From an uncultured Actinomycetes bacterium (lineage in GTDB: Bacteria > Actinomycetota > Thermoleophilia > Gaiellales > JAICJC01), in the NCBI GenBank assembly GCA_963811675.1, contig CAWESH010000004.1, positions 99,976 to 163,975 of the forward strand: 64,000 bases of DNA. The letters run 5' to 3'. The notes beneath the pieces were generated by a model. That model was given only the letters and a program-made list of their open reading frames with translations. It had not been told where the DNA came from and searched no databases. Below, one piece after another: positions 6,240 through 45,573 of this stretch. Position 1 is the stretch's first letter. Each line of letters begins with the position of its first letter. The position numbers and the translations under genes are program-made.

Positions 6240-8721
<2,482 letters not shown>

Positions 8722-36023: not shown

Positions 36024-36593
36024 CTACTCCCCGGTTTGAAGGACGATTTGGTCGACCTCGTCGACCTCCAGCAGTTGCACCTTGACGCGCTCGGTGCGGG
36101 CGGTCGGCATGTTCTTGCCGACGTAGTCCGGCCGTATCGGCAGCTCACGGTGGCCACGGTCGACCATCACTGCGAGCTGGACCCGCTGGGGCCGGCCGTA
36201 GTCGAACACCGCGTCGATCGCTGCCCGGATGGTGCGACCGGTGTAGAGCACGTCGTCGACCAGCACGACCGACATGCCTTCCAGCGGGAAATCGAGCCGG
36301 GTGGCCTTGACCACCGGCTGGGGGTGGAGCGGCTGGTCACCCGCGCGCATGGTCATGTCGTCGCGGTAGAAGGTGATGTCCAGCGCTCCGGTGGGCACCG
36401 CCACCCCGGTGAACTCCTCGATCAGGGTGCGGAGCCGCTGTGCCAGCGGCACCCCGCGGGTGTAGATGCCGACCAGAGCCAGCTTGGTGGGATCGTCGTG
36501 CTTCTCGGCGATCTCATGCGCGATCCGCCGAAGGGTTCGCTGCATGTGATCCTCGTCGAGCAGCACTCGCTCGGCGGGCGCAGACACGCTCAT
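36024..36593 (-). CDS. pyrR: bifunctional pyr operon regulator / uracil phosphoribosyltransferase
   Basis: The 189-aa ORF has the PRPP-binding motif VVLVDDVLYTGRT. It is the first gene of the pyr operon. An AAAGGAG RBS lies upstream of the ATG at 36593. Confidence 0.92.
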   Translation of the reverse strand: MSVSAPAERVLLDEDHMQRTLRRIAHEIAEKHDDPTKLALVGIYTRGVPLAQRLRTLIEEFTGVAVPTGALDITFYRDDMTMRAGDQPLHPQPVVKATRLDFPLEGMSVVLVDDVLYTGRTIRAAIDAVFDYGRPQRVQLAVMVDRGHRELPIRPDYVGKNMPTARTERVKVQLLEVDEVDQIVLQTGE

Positions 36594-37449: not shown

Positions 37450-38205
37450 TCAGCCGGCCGATCGGCGATCGAGCCTGCAGATGGCCAGTCGAAGGTGGTG
37501 GCGGCCGGTGCCGCGGCGACGTCGCGTTCCAGCCGGGCAAGGCCGTCGCGGTACTCGTCGCCGGGCACATGTGCGGCGAGCTGTGGAGATGTAGCGCCCA
37601 CGCACCGCTCGATGCAGCTCGGGCCCGTGGGAGTTGCCTGCAACCGAGATGCGTTCGACCGCCGCGCCGGCGAAGCCGCCGGAGTTCAGCTCGCCGATCA
37701 CCGCCTGCGGGTCGGGGAAGCGAGCGAGGTCGATCGCGGGGATCGACGGAAAGTACTGGTTGAGGTAGAACGTCTCGAAGTGGTCGAGGTGGAAGCTGAC
37801 GATGGCCAGCCGGGCGCCGGCAGCGGTGACGCGCGCCAGCTGCGCGATCGCCGCCGACCGATCGGCGATCAGATGCAGCACCAGGTGCATGTGGGCTGCA
37901 TCGAACCACCCATCCTTGAACGGCAGCGTCTCAATCGAGGCCTGTCGCCAGCCGACCCGTTCACCACCGGCTCGCGCCCGCGCCTGATCGAGCATCTGAG
38001 CCGACGGGTCGACCGCCCACACTCGTGCACCGAGTTGCTCGGCCGCATAGACGGCAAACCGGCCGGTGCCGCAGCCGACGTCGAGCAGTCGCCGGGGTGA
38101 GCCCAGCGCTGCCAGTGTCTGATCGGCGAGCTCCCTCCACTGTGCCCCTCCGGAACGCAGCCGGTCGTAGTCTTCGGCGAGTGCGTCGAAGTGTGGGTCA
38201 GCCAT
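37450..38205 (-). CDS. class I SAM-dependent methyltransferase (C-terminal third possibly disturbed by two compensating frame shifts)
   Basis: LLDVGCGTGRF is SAM motif I, followed by FDAAHMHLVLHL. A more protein-like continuation between ~37605 and ~37495 lies in another frame (PGDEYRDGLARLERDV...TTFDW). Confidence 0.7.
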   Translation of the reverse strand: MADPHFDALAEDYDRLRSGGAQWRELADQTLAALGSPRRLLDVGCGTGRFAVYAAEQLGARVWAVDPSAQMLDQARARAGGERVGWRQASIETLPFKDGWFDAAHMHLVLHLIADRSAAIAQLARVTAAGARLAIVSFHLDHFETFYLNQYFPSIPAIDLARFPDPQAVIGELNSGGFAGAAVERISVAGNSHGPELHRAVRGRYISTARRTCARRRVPRRPCPAGTRRRRGTGRHHLRLAICRLDRRSAG

Positions 38206-39142
38206 CGGCGCGGATCAGTTGCGGCTCGCCCCGCTCCGGCAGCGGCAGGTCGATCGTGTCGAAGTCGCGGGGCACCACGGTGTTGGGAAACTCGGCGCGA
38301 GCCTCGTCGCGGATCTCTCGCGGCAGGTAACGGGTGGAGAGATGGGTCAGCGCGAGCATCGAGACCTGGGCATCACGACCGATGCGAGCGGCTTGAAGCG
38401 CGGTGGTGTGCCCGGTTTGGCGGGCGCGCTCGGCCTCGGCCTCGAGAAAGGTGGCCTCGTGGATCAGAACGTCAGCGGCAGCTGCGGCCTCGATCATGCC
38501 TGGGCACGGACGCGTGTCGCCGGAGAACACCACCCGACGGCCCCGGCGGGGCGCGCCGAGCACCTGATCGGCGGTCACCTCCACCCCGCTCGCCGACTGC
38601 ACCGGCTCACCTCGCTGCAGCGCTCCAAACGCCGGCCCCTCGGGAACGCCCAGTTCGCGGGCTTTGTCGAGGTCGAATCGCCCGGGTCGCTCGTCCTCGA
38701 CCAGCGCGTAGCCGAGACTTGGGAGATCGTGGGACGTGAGGAACGCCTCGATCCGAAAGCCATCGTGTCCGATCCAGTCGGCAGGATCGAGCTCGATCAC
38801 CTCGAGGTCATATGGCACGCGGCCGAGCACGGGATGCAGCGTCTGCATCAATGCCGTCAGGCCGACCGGCCCATACAGCCGCAGCGGGGCGTCACGGCCG
38901 CGCAGAGCAAACGTCTTGAGCATGCCGGGCAGACCGAGAAAATGGTCGGCGTGGCAGTGCGTGATCAGGATCTCGTCCACATCGACGAGACCCGCGCCCG
39001 ATCGGAGCAGCTGTCGCTGAGTACCTTCGCCGCAGTCGATCAGCAGCGACACGCCACTGCGCCGAACCAGGAACGCGGGTAGGCCGCGCTGAGCGGTGGG
39101 CGCGGCACCCGCCGTCCCGAGGAAAAGCACATTGAGATCCAC
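38198..39142 (-). CDS. rnz: ribonuclease Z
   Basis: Intact 314-aa ORF with FLGTAGAAPT and ITHCHADH (the HxHxDH motif). GTG start at 39142. Confidence 0.9.
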   Translation of the reverse strand: MDLNVLFLGTAGAAPTAQRGLPAFLVRRSGVSLLIDCGEGTQRQLLRSGAGLVDVDEILITHCHADHFLGLPGMLKTFALRGRDAPLRLYGPVGLTALMQTLHPVLGRVPYDLEVIELDPADWIGHDGFRIEAFLTSHDLPSLGYALVEDERPGRFDLDKARELGVPEGPAFGALQRGEPVQSASGVEVTADQVLGAPRRGRRVVFSGDTRPCPGMIEAAAAADVLIHEATFLEAEAERARQTGHTTALQAARIGRDAQVSMLALTHLSTRYLPREIRDEARAEFPNTVVPRDFDTIDLPLPERGEPQLIRADG

Positions 39143-39365
39143 GGCGCCACTCTAGATGGTGTATTCCGGATGGCGGCGCCTGGGCGAGCGATGCAACCGG
39201 CGGGCAGCACCAGGTGGGCACCGAAACTGCGGCTCAGGCAGATGCCGGACCGCGTGCAGTGGGATCAGCGGCGCCGCCGGGGCGGCAGGATCCTGAGGTG
39301 GCGCGGCCATCACGATCATGGCGCGGCGCAGGAACACCTCGAGGCCGAACGGCTCCGACGGAGTG

Positions 39366-39494
39366 TCAGAACCGGGGATCAGCCTGAGATCGGGACGGGA
39401 TGGCCGCGGCAGCTCGAGCGGCTCGTAGGAGTACTCGGATCAGGTTGTGCCGGTAGTCGTCCAGCACGATGACATTGTCGGGATACGCGCTCAT
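39366..39494 (-). CDS. short hypothetical ORF translationally coupled to the LysM gene (possibly longer; frame uncertain)
   Basis: Translation MSAYPDNVIVLDDYRHNLIRVLLRAARAAAAIPSRSQADPRF. Its ATG overlaps the LysM stop as ATGA. A possible continuation lies in another frame down to ~39152. I recognise no family. Confidence 0.2.
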   Translation of the reverse strand: MSAYPDNVIVLDDYRHNLIRVLLRAARAAAAIPSRSQADPRF

Positions 39495-39757
39495 GGGAGA
39501 AGAATCACCTGGCCTGGAAGGATGGTTGCGTCGTTGATGTCGTTGGCCTGTTCGATCTGGAACACGGCCTGGCGGGGATCGTCGGTGCGGTAGTGGGACG
39601 ATGCGATCGACCACAGCGTCTCTCCCGACTTCACCAGGTGGTGAGTCGGGCGCGAGGCGCCGGATGAGGCCGGTGCAACGGCCAGCATCAGCAGGGCGAT
39701 CACGACAAAGAGTGCAAGGACGGACGGGATGTGACGATATGTGGGTGAGGCGAACAT
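39491..39757 (-). CDS. small membrane-anchored LysM-domain protein (YneA/ChiZ-like candidate SOS cell-division inhibitor)
   Basis: The 88-aa protein is MFASPTYRHIPSVLALFVVIALLMLAVAP (a TM helix) followed by HHLVKSGETLWSIASSHY...ILPGQVILLP (LysM). Its ATG lies inside a LexA box. Confidence 0.7.
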   Translation of the reverse strand: MFASPTYRHIPSVLALFVVIALLMLAVAPASSGASRPTHHLVKSGETLWSIASSHYRTDDPRQAVFQIEQANDINDATILPGQVILLP

Positions 39758-39764
39758 GTGTTCG
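39751..39764. promoter_or_regulatory. LexA (SOS) box 1: CGAACATGTGTTCG
   Basis: Perfect match to the Gram-positive/actinobacterial operator CGAAC-N4-GTTCG. It overlaps the LysM start codon. Coordinates are derived from the ORF frames (+/-1). Confidence 0.7.
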
Positions 39765-39767
39765 GGG

Positions 39768-39773
39768 AGTGTA
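39768..39773 (-). promoter_or_regulatory. -10-like hexamer TACACT between the two SOS boxes, 10 nt upstream of the LysM ATG
   Basis: The minus strand reads CGAACACGTGTTCG-CC-TACACT-CCC-CGAACACATGTTCG. Confidence 0.35.
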
Positions 39774-39775
39774 GG

Positions 39776-39789
39776 CGAACACGTGTTCG
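39776..39789. promoter_or_regulatory. LexA (SOS) box 2: CGAACACGTGTTCG
   Basis: Perfect CGAAC-N4-GTTCG palindrome 11 nt from box 1. It overlaps the -35 region of the divergent DHPS-like gene. Confidence 0.7.
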
Positions 39790-39803
39790 GTGTCAAGCGC
39801 AAG

Positions 39804-39809
39804 TAGGAT
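39804..39809 (+). promoter_or_regulatory. -10-like hexamer TAGGAT, 9 nt upstream of the DHPS-like GTG
   Basis: The sequence reads TAGGAT-TTCCCGCTT-GTG with no SD. Confidence 0.3.
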
Positions 39810-39818
39810 TTCCCGCTT

Positions 39819-40656
39819 GTGACCATCGAATTCGCACATCGATCCCTCCCCCGCGGAGGGCCTCCGACGGTGATGGGGATCGTCAACGTGACCCCGGACT
39901 CGTTCTACGACCAGGGCGCCACCGCTGCGGCCGCCGACGCCGTCGCGCATGGGTTGGCGCTGCTCCAACGCGGCGCGGGTGCACTCGACGTTGGCGGCAT
40001 GACCGCCCAGCCCGGTGGCGAGCTGGATCCGTCGATCGAAATAGCGCGGGTGGTGCCGGTGATCGAGCAGCTGCGCGCGCACACCGACGCAGTGATCGCG
40101 GTCGACACCTACCGTGCCCCGGTGGCCGCCGCAGCGCTCCAGGCAGGCGCCGACCTGGTCAACGATCACACCGGGCTGAGCGATCCCGAGATGGCGGCGG
40201 CGGTCGCCGCGGCCGGCGCCGGACTGGTGATCACCCATCTCGGCCTGCAACCCAAGCAGGCCCGCACCGGCTCCTACTCGATCTCGGTCGCCAGAGATCG
40301 CCGAGTTCCTGACGGCCCGCGTCGAGACGGCGGTGGCGGCCGGCGTGCGACCGGCGGGGATTCTGATCGACCCCGGCCTTGGATTTGGGAAGGACATCGA
40401 CACCGACCTCGACACCCTGCGGCACCTGCCAACGCTGATCGGGCTCGGGCATCCCGTGCTACTGGCGTGCTCCCACAAGGAGGTGACGGCCGCTCCGCTG
40501 GGGCTGCCAGAGTCTGCACTCGAGGGTACGGCGGCGGTCACGGCGGTGGCTGCCTACCTGGGCGTGGCGGTGCTGCGCCTGCACGATCTGCCGTTTATGG
40601 CACACGCCGCTCATATGGCCTGGCTGATGCGCCCTGCCGACGCGATCAGCCAGTAG
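39819..40656 (+). CDS. folP: dihydropteroate synthase homologue (frame broken near 40285)
   Basis: VMGIVNVTPDSF, DVGG, VDTY and IDPGLGFGK are pterin-binding DHPS motifs. ORFs 39819..40733 (N-terminal part) and 40333..40656 are colinear. I cannot tell whether this is the primary folP or a folP2-like paralogue. Confidence 0.8.
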
Positions 40657-41788
40657 TCGGCGGCGCCAGCGACGGCGCGAAGAACGACTCGAGGAACATC
40701 CCGTCGCGGTGGATCAGCTCACCGTCGGCGTAGATCTCGCCGCCCGATCGCAGATCCCGCACCATGTCCCAGTGAAGTGCCGAGCGGTTCACGCTGCCCG
40801 TATCCGGATAGCCCACGCCCAGGGCCATGTGGCAGGTGCCCCCGATCTTCTCGTCGAACAGGATTTGCTTGGTGAACCGGCTGATCCCGTAGTTGGTGCC
40901 GATGGCGAGCTCTCCCAGCACCGAAGCCCCGTCGTCCATCGAGAGCATCTGGTGCAGGTAGCTCTGGCCGCTTCTGGCCTCGCTGTGGACGACTCGGCCG
41001 TTCTCGAAGACAAGCCTCACCCCTTCGACCTCGCGACCGCCGATGATGGCGGGGAAGGAGAACCGGATCTCGCCGTTGGTCTCGTCCTCCACCGGCCCGG
41101 TGAAGACCTCGCCGTCGGGGAAGTTGCGCAGCCCCTGCGACGCGATCCAGGTGCGGCCCTCAACACCCAGGGTGAGGTCGGTATCCTCGGCCACCAATCG
41201 GATCGTCGATACCTGTTCGAGCTTTTGGGTCAGCAGCTCGAGCTTCTGCCCGAACTCGCGCCACGCCGCCACCGGATCTTCGAGCTGCAGCCAGCCTGCG
41301 CCGAACACGAAATCCTCATAGGCCGGCAGCGACATCTCGGAGTCCTGGGCAAATGCGTGGCAGGGAAAGGCGGTCACGCACCAGCGCAGGTCGCCGTCTG
41401 CCGATCGTCGCATGAACCTGTCGGTCACCGGCCGCACCGCGGCCGCGCGGCGGGCCAGCAATGATGGGTCGATACCCGACAGCTCGCGGGTGTTCCAGCT
41501 CGCGTGGATGCTGATGCGAGCGTCGATCGTGTTCATCTCCTCCAACGCCGACGGTGGGAGCCAGTCGAGCTGATGGTCGCCGGCTTCGGACAGGAATGCG
41601 TGGTCGATGCCTTCCAGGGTCACCCGCACGGTCGGGAGGCCGCCTCGGTCGATGACCGCCTTGGTCAACTCGGCCAAGAGCGGCTCAGCCAGCGAGGGGC
41701 CGTTGATCATCACCAGGTCGCCCTCGCGGACGTCCACCGAGTACTCGGCGATCAGCTTGGCCAGCCGGGCGACGCGAGGATCGTTCAC
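40646..41788 (-). CDS. M29-family aminopeptidase (AmpS/PepS-like), paralogue A
   Basis: The NFPDGEVFTGP, FDEKIGGTCHMALG and HWDMV motifs are shared with paralogue B. The GTG start overlaps the stop of paralogue B as GTGA. Confidence 0.8.
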   Translation of the reverse strand: MNDPRVARLAKLIAEYSVDVREGDLVMINGPSLAEPLLAELTKAVIDRGGLPTVRVTLEGIDHAFLSEAGDHQLDWLPPSALEEMNTIDARISIHASWNTRELSGIDPSLLARRAAAVRPVTDRFMRRSADGDLRWCVTAFPCHAFAQDSEMSLPAYEDFVFGAGWLQLEDPVAAWREFGQKLELLTQKLEQVSTIRLVAEDTDLTLGVEGRTWIASQGLRNFPDGEVFTGPVEDETNGEIRFSFPAIIGGREVEGVRLVFENGRVVHSEARSGQSYLHQMLSMDDGASVLGELAIGTNYGISRFTKQILFDEKIGGTCHMALGVGYPDTGSVNRSALHWDMVRDLRSGGEIYADGELIHRDGMFLESFFAPSLAPPTTG

Positions 41789-42897
41789 AGAAACCGGCCG
41801 TTCTCGTAGATCAGCTGGCCGTCGCCGAACACCTGCGATTGCGGGCGCAGATCGCACACCAGATCCCAGTGGACGCCGGAGGCATTGGTGCCGCCGGCCT
41901 CCGGGAATGCCATACCGAGGGCAACGTGGCAGGTGCCGCCGATCTTCTCGTCAAACAGGGTCTCGCCGGTTGCCACCTGGATCTCGTCGTTGAGGCCGAA
42001 GGCGACCTCGCCCAGGAATCTGGCTCCCTCGTCGGTGTCCAGGATGCTTTCCAGGTGCTCCTGCCCGTGGTCGGCATGGGCTTTGACCACTCTCCCCTGT
42101 TCGAACCACAGTCGCACGCCCTCGACCCGCTTGCCGCCGTAGGGGCTTGGGAAGGGAAAGGCGATGGTGCCTTCGGTCGCGGTGTGGATCGGGCTGGTAT
42201 ACACCTCTCCGTCGGGGAAGTTCTCGCGGCCGTGGGCGTTCGACCACAGTCGGCCGCCGACGTTGACCGTGAGGTCGGTGTCCGGGGCGACGATCCGCAG
42301 CTGCTCGAGCCGGCCGAGACGGTCGGCCACCACCTGCTGCGTCTCGTACTGGTTGCGCCAATGCGCGATCGGATCGGGGTCGTTCAGGTGGCCCGCGGCG
42401 AAAACGAACTCCTGCCACTCTGTGAGCGACATACCCGCCTCCTGGGCGGAAGCGTGCGAGGGGTACAAGGTGCCGCACCAGCGGCTCTCACCGTCGGCCT
42501 GGCGTTGGCCGAACCGCCGGTCGAGCGGCTCGGTGGCGGCCGCTCGCTGCGCCAGGCGGCGAGACGACACCTGAGCCTTGTAGGCCAGGTTCTCGTTGGC
42601 CCAGATGGACAGGATCTTGTCCGGCAGCTCGACGTCCAGGTGATCGAGCGGCGTGAGCGCCGTCAACTGGGCCTCAGAGGCCTGTTCGAGTCTGGCCGCC
42701 TCGACCGATTCCAAGTGTGCCCGCAGGATCACGTGTCCTCCCAGCCGGGTCACCGACCTGACCACTTCGACCACCAGCGGTTGGGCGACCGCAGGGCTGT
42801 AGACCATCACCAGCTCCTGCGGTTGCACGTCGAGGGAGTACCGGCACAGCAGGTCGGCGAGGGTTTGAAGGCGGGCGTCGGACAACTGCCGCGGCAT
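41785..42897 (-). CDS. M29-family aminopeptidase (AmpS/PepS-like), paralogue B
   Basis: Translation starts MPRQLSDARLQTLADLL and contains NFPDGEVYTSP, FDEKIGGTCHVALG and HWDLV. ATG at 42897. Confidence 0.8.
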   Translation of the reverse strand: MPRQLSDARLQTLADLLCRYSLDVQPQELVMVYSPAVAQPLVVEVVRSVTRLGGHVILRAHLESVEAARLEQASEAQLTALTPLDHLDVELPDKILSIWANENLAYKAQVSSRRLAQRAAATEPLDRRFGQRQADGESRWCGTLYPSHASAQEAGMSLTEWQEFVFAAGHLNDPDPIAHWRNQYETQQVVADRLGRLEQLRIVAPDTDLTVNVGGRLWSNAHGRENFPDGEVYTSPIHTATEGTIAFPFPSPYGGKRVEGVRLWFEQGRVVKAHADHGQEHLESILDTDEGARFLGEVAFGLNDEIQVATGETLFDEKIGGTCHVALGMAFPEAGGTNASGVHWDLVCDLRPQSQVFGDGQLIYENGRFL

Positions 42898-42905
42898 ATT
42901 ACCGG

Positions 42906-43346
42906 TCACACCGGGCGGCTGAAGAACACCCGCGCAAAGCCGTGTTCGCGGCGTCGCTCGACCTGCTGGAATCCGAGGCCGCGGTAGAACGCGATGTTCT
43001 CGGCCATCAGCTCGTGTGTGTACAGTCGAATCTCTGGCAACCCACGCTCCCGCGCGTACCCGTCCGCGAACGTCAAAAGGCGCGTGCCGAGGCCGTGTCC
43101 CTGGCATGAGGGTTCAACGGCGACGTTCTCGATCATCAGGTGGTCGTCGCCGATCACCAACACGATCACCCCGGCCAGGGTGTGGTTTTGGTCGATCACG
43201 AACGCCTCACCACGAGCGATCTCCGCGGCGTGGTCGGCGTCCATCGGCGCCGGCCGCAATCCGATTCGAGGGACGTACACCGAGTAGGCCCGCTCGACCA
43301 GAGCAGTGATCGCGGCGGCCTCGGCGGTCACGGCCGCGCGGATCAT
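42906..43346 (-). CDS. GNAT-family N-acetyltransferase
   Basis: The 146-aa protein carries the acetyl-CoA-binding motif VAVEPSCQGHGLGTRLL. Its ATG overlaps the DUF1611 stop as ATGA. Confidence 0.75.
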   Translation of the reverse strand: MIRAAVTAEAAAITALVERAYSVYVPRIGLRPAPMDADHAAEIARGEAFVIDQNHTLAGVIVLVIGDDHLMIENVAVEPSCQGHGLGTRLLTFADGYARERGLPEIRLYTHELMAENIAFYRGLGFQQVERRREHGFARVFFSRPV

Positions 43347-45500: not shown

Positions 45501-45573
45501 GCGCCTGTAGCTCAGGGGATAGAGCGTGCGCCTCCGGAGCGCAAGGTCGTAGGTTCGATTCCTACCAGGCGCA
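45501..45573 (+). tRNA. tRNA-Arg (anticodon CCG)
   Basis: Folded by hand into a cloverleaf. Acceptor stem GCGCCTG/CAGGCGC, D stem GCTC/GAGC, anticodon stem TGCGC/GCGCA with loop CTCCGGA, T arm GTAGG-TTCGATT-CCTAC. The discriminator is A and CCA is not encoded. Confidence 0.9.

Follow-up and report, generated by a model that had tools for sequence, protein, structure and literature searches.

The DNA considered here, called the window throughout, is a 64 kb stretch from an uncultured bacterium of the Gaiellales, an order within the class Thermoleophilia. On its minus strand, the window carries a gene for a YneA-like protein of 88 amino acids (aa) with a single transmembrane (TM) helix and a LysM domain (39491..39757; stop codon TGA at 39493-39491). 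The gene is preceded by a promoter with two LexA-type operators, is followed by a coupled small open reading frame (ORF) at 39234..39494 on the same strand, and has no lexA beside it. Together, these features probably represent an SOS-controlled division-inhibitor operon.

Scanning the window for the operator pattern CGAAC-N4-GTTCG returned two sites, the proximal box CGAACATGTGTTCG at 39751-39764 (gene strand CGAACACATGTTCG) and the distal box CGAACACGTGTTCG at 39776-39789. The expected number is 0.12, and 2 of 100 shuffled sequences contained two or more matches. The relaxed pattern GAAC-N4-GTTC returned the same two sites alone in the window, and the similarity between the boxes extends to an 18-nucleotide (nt) repeat, AGGCGAACAYGTGTTCGG, whose copies lie 25 nt apart. 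At the level of sequence match, the sites have the characteristics of LexA operators, with perfect half-sites, a 4-nt spacing, and variable N4 cores and flanks. Their half-sites (CGAAC/GTTCG) are those of the Cheo/mycobacterial SOS box (Davis et al. 2002, as cited in PMC2897130).

Read along the minus strand, the promoter region consists of TTGACA (39791..39796), C, the distal box, CC, TACACT (39768..39773), CC, and the proximal box, which holds the ATG (39757-39755) of the LysM gene. Both boxes fit inside 39 bp and in promoter register. In particular, TTGACA-17-TACACT is the sole sigma-70-like match in a 1.1 kb promoter scan (38900-40000), matching at 10 of 12 positions; the distal box lies inside its 17-nt spacer between the -35 and -10 hexamers, and the proximal box spans both the predicted transcription start and the start codon. 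The -10 hexamer ends 10 nt before the ATG in the window, and the first codons of the gene (AUG/GUG-UUC-G..) form half of the operator. Across the 44 related loci described below, there is no purine-rich tract upstream of the LysM start and no space for a Shine-Dalgarno sequence; Rfam has no match at the LysM locus. A sequence-only reading of this DNA had described two perfect boxes that bracket TACACT (39773-39768), with the start codon of the 88-aa ORF inside the first, and all of these elements are present, the boxes being the only matches in the window.

The cassette of boxes and start codon was compared across a clade set of 44 loci (the window, L001, L003 and L004-L044), where the 43 loci beyond the window span up to ~16 kb each, with ~8 kb of flank per side. 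These loci were obtained as protein relatives and by a genome scan; they come from uncultured metagenome-assembled genomes that, where named, are labelled Actinomycetes, Gaiellales, Gaiellaceae or Thermoleophilia, and the closest relative (L004, 97% identity) is from a 'Microflora Danica' (MFD) assembly. An in-frame start codon occupies box positions 8-10 in all 44 loci (ATG in 35 and GTG in 9), and because of this fixed placement every protein begins with M-F-(A/G/V/D). A second perfect box is found in 37 loci, 22-26 nt upstream (start to start) and within the promoter spacer, while an exact TTGACA is kept in 36. Further, in every locus 7-11 nt lie between the end of a [T/C]ANNNT -10 hexamer and the start codon, with modes at 8 and 10 nt. 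The half-sites and their 4-nt spacing are invariant over the 44 loci, the N4 cores and flanks vary, and the boxes are kept down to 40% protein identity. Recurrence in 44 related loci places this arrangement far beyond chance.

The mRNA leader produced from the LysM promoter is predicted to be roughly 0-4 nt long. With the -10 hexamer just 7-11 nt ahead of the start codon and no Shine-Dalgarno space, a leaderless or near-leaderless LysM mRNA is plausible. Among Actinobacteria, lexA of M. tuberculosis is an earlier example of an SOS gene that is leaderless (PMC2897130).

Two variations on the cassette were also observed. The seven loci of context group D (L018, L023, L024, L027, L030, L032 and L042) have the proximal start-codon box only; both the -35 hexamer TTGACA and the coupled small ORF are missing from them, and their LysM protein, 84 aa long, ends in PP or PQ. 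Separately, a third CGAAC-N4-GTTCG match in L036 (8849-8862) was judged by eye to lie inside a coding region resembling thiamine-diphosphate enzymes, and was set aside as a chance occurrence.

The product of the LysM gene has the anatomy of a small bitopic membrane protein. Its TM helix covers residues ~5-28 (nt 39745-39674, minus strand), with a maximum hydropathy of 2.86 at residues 10-28 in a 19-residue window, and its LysM domain covers residues 38-88 (nt 39646-39494). A profile search with Pfam LysM (PF01476), one of the checks proposed in the sequence-only reading, matched residues 40-88 with E=7.6e-9 and 35.8 bits against a gathering cut-off of 20.9. AlphaFold2 predicts a helix at residues 5-27, a short linker, and the beta-alpha-alpha-beta fold of LysM at residues 38-87, where the predicted local distance difference test score (pLDDT) is ~90. 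Among NCBIfam families, the 'cell division suppressor protein YneA' (NF010723) scores best, with E=1.5e-12 and residues 13-88 aligned to profile positions 7-85 of 87. The protein has the size of YneA proteins (~80-110 aa) and, according to the modeled topology, their single N-terminal TM helix and C-terminal extracytoplasmic LysM domain; no tail extends past that domain. In architecture and best-matching family the LysM protein is therefore YneA-like, while by the NCBI threshold it is not an equivalog. ChiZ itself has a long, disordered, Arg-rich cytoplasmic N-terminus before its TM helix. This extension is absent here, where the TM helix starts at about residue 5-10 and the cytoplasmic part comprises ~4-10 residues. 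Accordingly, the earlier comparison to YneA and ChiZ holds for the former, but ChiZ is the poorer analogue.

No lexA was found in the window or in L001-L044 by tblastn with three LexA queries (best E=0.7), and a regular-expression search for the S24 motif across the window and clade loci also returned none. The arrangement that defines the YneA/ChiZ/SosA/DivS class, divergence from lexA, is missing from all 44 clade loci. In contrast, of the 39 more distant relatives from the same scan, 31 carry a divergent lexA directly upstream of the LysM gene, and many have nrdR downstream; the lexA-linked outgroups include Acidimicrobiia, Microbacterium, Agrococcus, Cellulomonas, Paenibacillus and other Firmicutes. 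The absence of lexA pairing that had been noted for the window alone holds in all of these clade loci. The contig P0196 (locus L084), retrieved by a LexA profile search, has the classical layout of lexA, LysM gene and ATP-cone (nrdR-like) gene, with recA nearby. Lying next to lexA is a known layout for yneA and chiZ (PMC6851548, PMC3989709) and a hallmark of Gram-positive SOS division inhibitors (PMC6851548).

The nearest relatives of the clade proteins outside the clade are these lexA-linked LysM proteins, and a profile-profile comparison (hhalign) of the Gaiellales family with the lexA-linked family gave a probability of 99.7% and E=2.6e-27. The outgroup boxes are of the same type as those in the clade, but 100-300 nt separate them from the region downstream that tblastn matched to the LysM protein, and no in-frame start codon is consistently found within a box. 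Several outgroups, mainly Microbacterium-type loci, encode an Arg-rich cytoplasmic N-terminus of 20-60 residues. The invariance of the LexA-type half-sites argues strongly that the clade possesses a LexA. The genome paper on Gaiella occulta mentions neither lexA nor SOS.

Downstream, the small ORF begins within the LysM stop codon, forming a 4-nt ATGA overlap. The sequence-only reading had reported this overlap and a short ORF of no known family (39494-39366), both of which stand, but the 42-aa ORF it described is the 5′ (N-terminal) fragment of a gene of ~85 codons. In particular, intact ORFs run from the same start in L005 (85 aa), L001 (86 aa) and L003 (85 aa), with intact relatives ranging from 77 to 89 aa, and alignment to L005 reveals insertions in the window of one G near 39436 and of GG at 39250-51. 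With a further 1-nt insertion at 40291 in the neighboring folP, there are three insertions within 1.1 kb, which are most likely long-read assembly errors and not signs of pseudogenes.

Several lines of evidence indicate that the small ORF is a real, clade-restricted orphan gene. Context groups A, B and E all retain the ATGA/GTGA overlap; the ORF has a coding signature, with G+C content by codon position in the order third > first > second and with substitutions roughly twice as common at the third position as at the first or second; and its family comprises at least 206 clusters at 90% identity, all 'hypothetical' and some labelled Gaiellales. A profile search with the downstream peptide, also suggested by the sequence-only reading, was carried out exhaustively over 1.84 billion proteins and yielded only 30 short representatives; one further match, a 1334-aa low-complexity protein, was spurious. 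The small ORF had no match in NCBIfam, only scattered noise in Pfam (E>0.01), and none among sequences in the PDB at E<=10. Its products share the motifs (N)VV.L(D/E).(W/Y)R, LRL(V/I) and PF.L(E/D)VFLRRA..VM, and their C-terminal residue is nearly always alanine. AlphaFold2 gives a mean pLDDT of 65, with a lone helix at residues 51-63 over the FLRRA motif, suggesting that the protein is probably cytoplasmic and largely disordered.

In L021 and also L044, where the divergent upstream neighbor of the LysM gene is Lon protease (5589-8000 in L021), a coupled downstream 91-aa protein (8264-8539) aligns weakly with the main small-ORF family. In context group C, the lineage with a 79-aa LysM protein, a SnoaL-like 148-aa gene (8207-8653 in L037, and others) begins 35-50 nt after the LysM gene and stands where the orphan small ORF lies elsewhere.

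The conservation of the cassette, its anatomy, the homology to lexA-linked LysM proteins, and the lack of a nearby lexA are observations made at the sequence level. The interpretation that we consider likely is that the two genes form a LexA-repressed, leaderless or near-leaderless division-inhibitor operon of the YneA type that has moved away from lexA. Its functional components, namely LexA binding, damage induction, leaderless translation, division inhibition and the role of the small protein, would follow from homology and regulatory logic. In the undamaged cell, two LexA dimers would occupy the two operators and shut the near-consensus promoter, one filling the spacer between the -35 and -10 hexamers and the other covering the transcription start and the start codon. 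After DNA damage, RecA-stimulated cleavage of LexA would release a burst of transcription, and the resulting bicistronic mRNA, with a 5′ untranslated region of only ~0-4 nt, would undergo leaderless translation. The 88-aa protein would then insert with its N-terminus inside and its C-terminus outside, its TM helix, if it acts like that of B. subtilis YneA, would engage the septal peptidoglycan synthase (FtsW/FtsI), and its LysM domain would bind peptidoglycan, so that septal wall synthesis is stalled until repair is finished. In B. subtilis, the TM helix of YneA binds TM7 of FtsW, and binding of LysM to peptidoglycan is required to stop septal synthesis (PMC13396833).

The disordered orphan of ~85 aa would be made alongside in a fixed ratio through the AUGA overlap, and would probably modulate the checkpoint as a cytoplasmic partner or as an antagonist or timer. 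We lean weakly towards a modulatory role on purely circumstantial grounds, namely the coupling, the disorder, the conserved C-terminal alanine and the Lon neighbor in one sub-lineage. A more elaborate version of the interpretation, which we put forward only tentatively, is that the Gaiellales have re-engineered their SOS checkpoint: a minimal YneA is detached from lexA, one 14-bp element serves as repressor site, transcription start, leaderless start and MF N-terminus, and the AUGA-coupled disordered protein provides a second cytoplasmic arm or an antagonist or timer.

Compared with YneA of Bacillus subtilis and Listeria (NF010723), the Gaiellales protein is likewise small and bitopic, with one TM helix near the N-terminus and a LysM domain at the C-terminus, outside the cytoplasm, and its promoter likewise has multiple LexA (Cheo) boxes, here by sequence match. 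It differs in its score, which does not reach the equivalog cut-off, and in its gene, which is not divergent from lexA. In addition, the operator contains the start codon, the mRNA would be of the leaderless type, and no tail follows the LysM domain. The operon partners of yneA in B. subtilis are yneB and ynzC; in the Gaiellales, the partner is instead the orphan disordered protein. By analogy, the YneA mechanism, in which the TM helix acts on FtsW and LysM on peptidoglycan, is likely transferable (PMC13396833). ChiZ (Rv2719c) of Mycobacterium tuberculosis shares with the Gaiellales protein an actinobacterial origin, an association with DNA damage, and the combination of TM helix and LysM domain. 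Homologous LysM genes lie between lexA and nrdR in loci from Acidimicrobiia, Microbacterium, Agrococcus and Cellulomonas, whereas the Gaiellales gene has neither neighbor and its operator overlaps the start codon. SosA (S. aureus), DivS (C. glutamicum) and SidA (Caulobacter) are similarly small, single-TM, LexA-controlled proteins, and they act late in division (PMC6851548, PMC3989709). Unlike the Gaiellales protein, these three have no LysM domain and no comparable cytoplasmic partner that is conserved and coupled to them in translation; SosA and DivS are also adjacent to lexA.

A number of observations weigh against the proposed division-inhibitor operon, and some of them favor other explanations. 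The clade is known from sequence alone. The small ORF is frameshifted in the window and in L004 and is absent from context groups C and D; because of that absence it is an accessory and not essential to the system. The leaderless start described in the sequence-only reading fits the geometry of 7-11 nt without a Shine-Dalgarno sequence, but the window's own 10-nt gap suggests that a leader of 2-4 nt is likelier there than a strictly leaderless start, because it exceeds the 6 nt found at the promoter of the neighboring rnz. That promoter is apparently of the leaderless type (TAGAGT at 39154-39149, 6 nt, GTG at 39142, minus strand), and its TAGAGT-6-GTG arrangement is conserved. The NF010723 score of 47.3 bits falls short of the 60-bit equivalog cut-off, and the profile-profile homology to the lexA-linked relatives is confined to the LysM domain. 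The last two points are compatible with an operon that is LexA-regulated and yet encodes a general damage-induced wall or envelope factor, acting in peptidoglycan remodelling, anchoring or signalling, as are the ubiquity of LysM as a peptidoglycan-binding module and the finding that no division gene lies near the LysM locus. Such a factor is nonetheless an unlikely explanation, considering that the architecture over the whole length, the size and the regulation all fit YneA, and that the outgroup relatives fill the exact lexA-adjacent slot of experimentally proven inhibitors (PMC6851548). Moreover, the use of two operators to repress a strong promoter suggests that the product is toxic.

The whereabouts of LexA bear on a further explanation, according to which the palindromes serve a regulator other than LexA, or LexA was lost in the clade and another dimeric repressor took over, leaving the operon outside the SOS response. 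In its favor, lexA was not seen in the window or in any of the other 43 loci of the clade, which span up to ~16 kb each, the LexA profile search gave only Acidimicrobiia-like LexA among the 120 matches listed, and Rubrobacter radiotolerans RSPS-4, a deep-branching actinobacterium, is reported to be without lexA (PMC4148983). Half-sites and 4-nt spacing that are invariant in 44 loci and identical to those of the lexA-adjacent outgroup boxes make this improbable. The half-sites, moreover, match the Cheo/mycobacterial SOS box. Slightly less probable again is that the boxes mainly control the divergent folP and overlap the LysM start codon incidentally, which would suit an intergenic region of just 61 bp and a distal box situated where a putative promoter of folP would have its -35 region. 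The upstream neighbors across the clade speak against this: they include folP, Lon (in L021), genes of 349 aa and 473 aa, the latter co-directional, and a different gene in group D, and folP is absent from groups C, D and E, where the boxes are retained in register with the LysM start. The consensus promoter also points toward the LysM gene. Because they follow the LysM gene through at least five upstream contexts, the boxes belong to that gene and not to folP. Finally, palindromes arising by chance in GC-rich DNA next to spurious small ORFs might be considered, given that 2 of 100 shuffles of the 64 kb reach at least two matches and that high-GC DNA is rich in spurious ORFs. The comparative data refute this: the boxes sit within 39 bp of one another and in promoter register, they are conserved in 44 loci whose protein identity falls as low as 40%, the match to the LysM domain is significant, and both ORFs are conserved as proteins, leaving chance with a negligible probability. 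The LexA-repressed YneA-type operon accordingly remains the reading that we favor.

SOS-induced LysM division inhibitors are already known; new here are the clade-wide unlinking from lexA, the start codon embedded in an operator, and the orphan coupled partner. Every Gram-positive SOS division inhibitor listed in the literature consulted was recognized in part through its adjacency to lexA (PMC6851548). The Gaiellales loci imply that a LysM-type inhibitor can leave lexA across an order of abundant soil bacteria while keeping LexA-type operators, and an inhibitor located away from lexA would therefore be missed by synteny-based searches. The overlap of operator and start codon would place a single DNA element under four constraints, namely repressor binding, transcription start, translation start and protein sequence, and the coupled orphan protein is a candidate for a new checkpoint component. 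The locus does not overturn current understanding.

The neighboring genes differ in how closely they follow the LysM gene. The divergent gene in the window is folP, encoding dihydropteroate synthase (39819..40656, plus strand), which is split by the insertion at 40291, mapped against L005; Pfam Pterin_bind matches both halves, and the intact orthologue in L006 scores 222 bits with TIGR01496 (cut-off 162.6). The sequence-only reading correctly named a dihydropteroate synthase homologue as the divergent partner in the window, but this pairing is specific to some sub-lineages, and the conserved neighbor is the downstream rnz. A TAGGAT at 39804-39809 lies 9 nt before the GTG of folP, with TANNNT equivalents recognized by eye in L003, L006 and L008. 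With the distal box in the -35 region of this putative promoter, folP could be partly SOS-controlled in the sub-lineage. The rnz gene, encoding RNase Z (38198..39142, minus strand; TIGR02651, 318.7 bits), follows the LysM gene in most of the related loci, across every context group. A search of the spacer between the small ORF and rnz gave no terminator-like site and no significant RNA structure (z=-0.03).

A prophage origin was rejected for the locus, which is surrounded by core genes (folP, rnz, M29 peptidases and pyrR); of these, rnz, the M29 peptidases and pyrR recur beside the LysM gene in several context groups. Beside folP, tandem genes for M29 (AmpS-type) aminopeptidases occupy 40646-41857 and 41785-43107 on the minus strand; the pair recurs in L003 and, by sequence resemblance, in L009, L012 and L024. 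A pyrR-like gene lies at 36024-36593 (minus strand) and is followed by large ORFs that extend to ~29400, one of them 1130 aa long, in an arrangement assigned by its resemblance to a pyr/car operon. In the matching position, L003 has Pfam matches of the pyrR, pyrB and pyrC types. Further along, a single tRNA at 45501-45573 (plus strand) is the sole Rfam match in the window at the gathering threshold.

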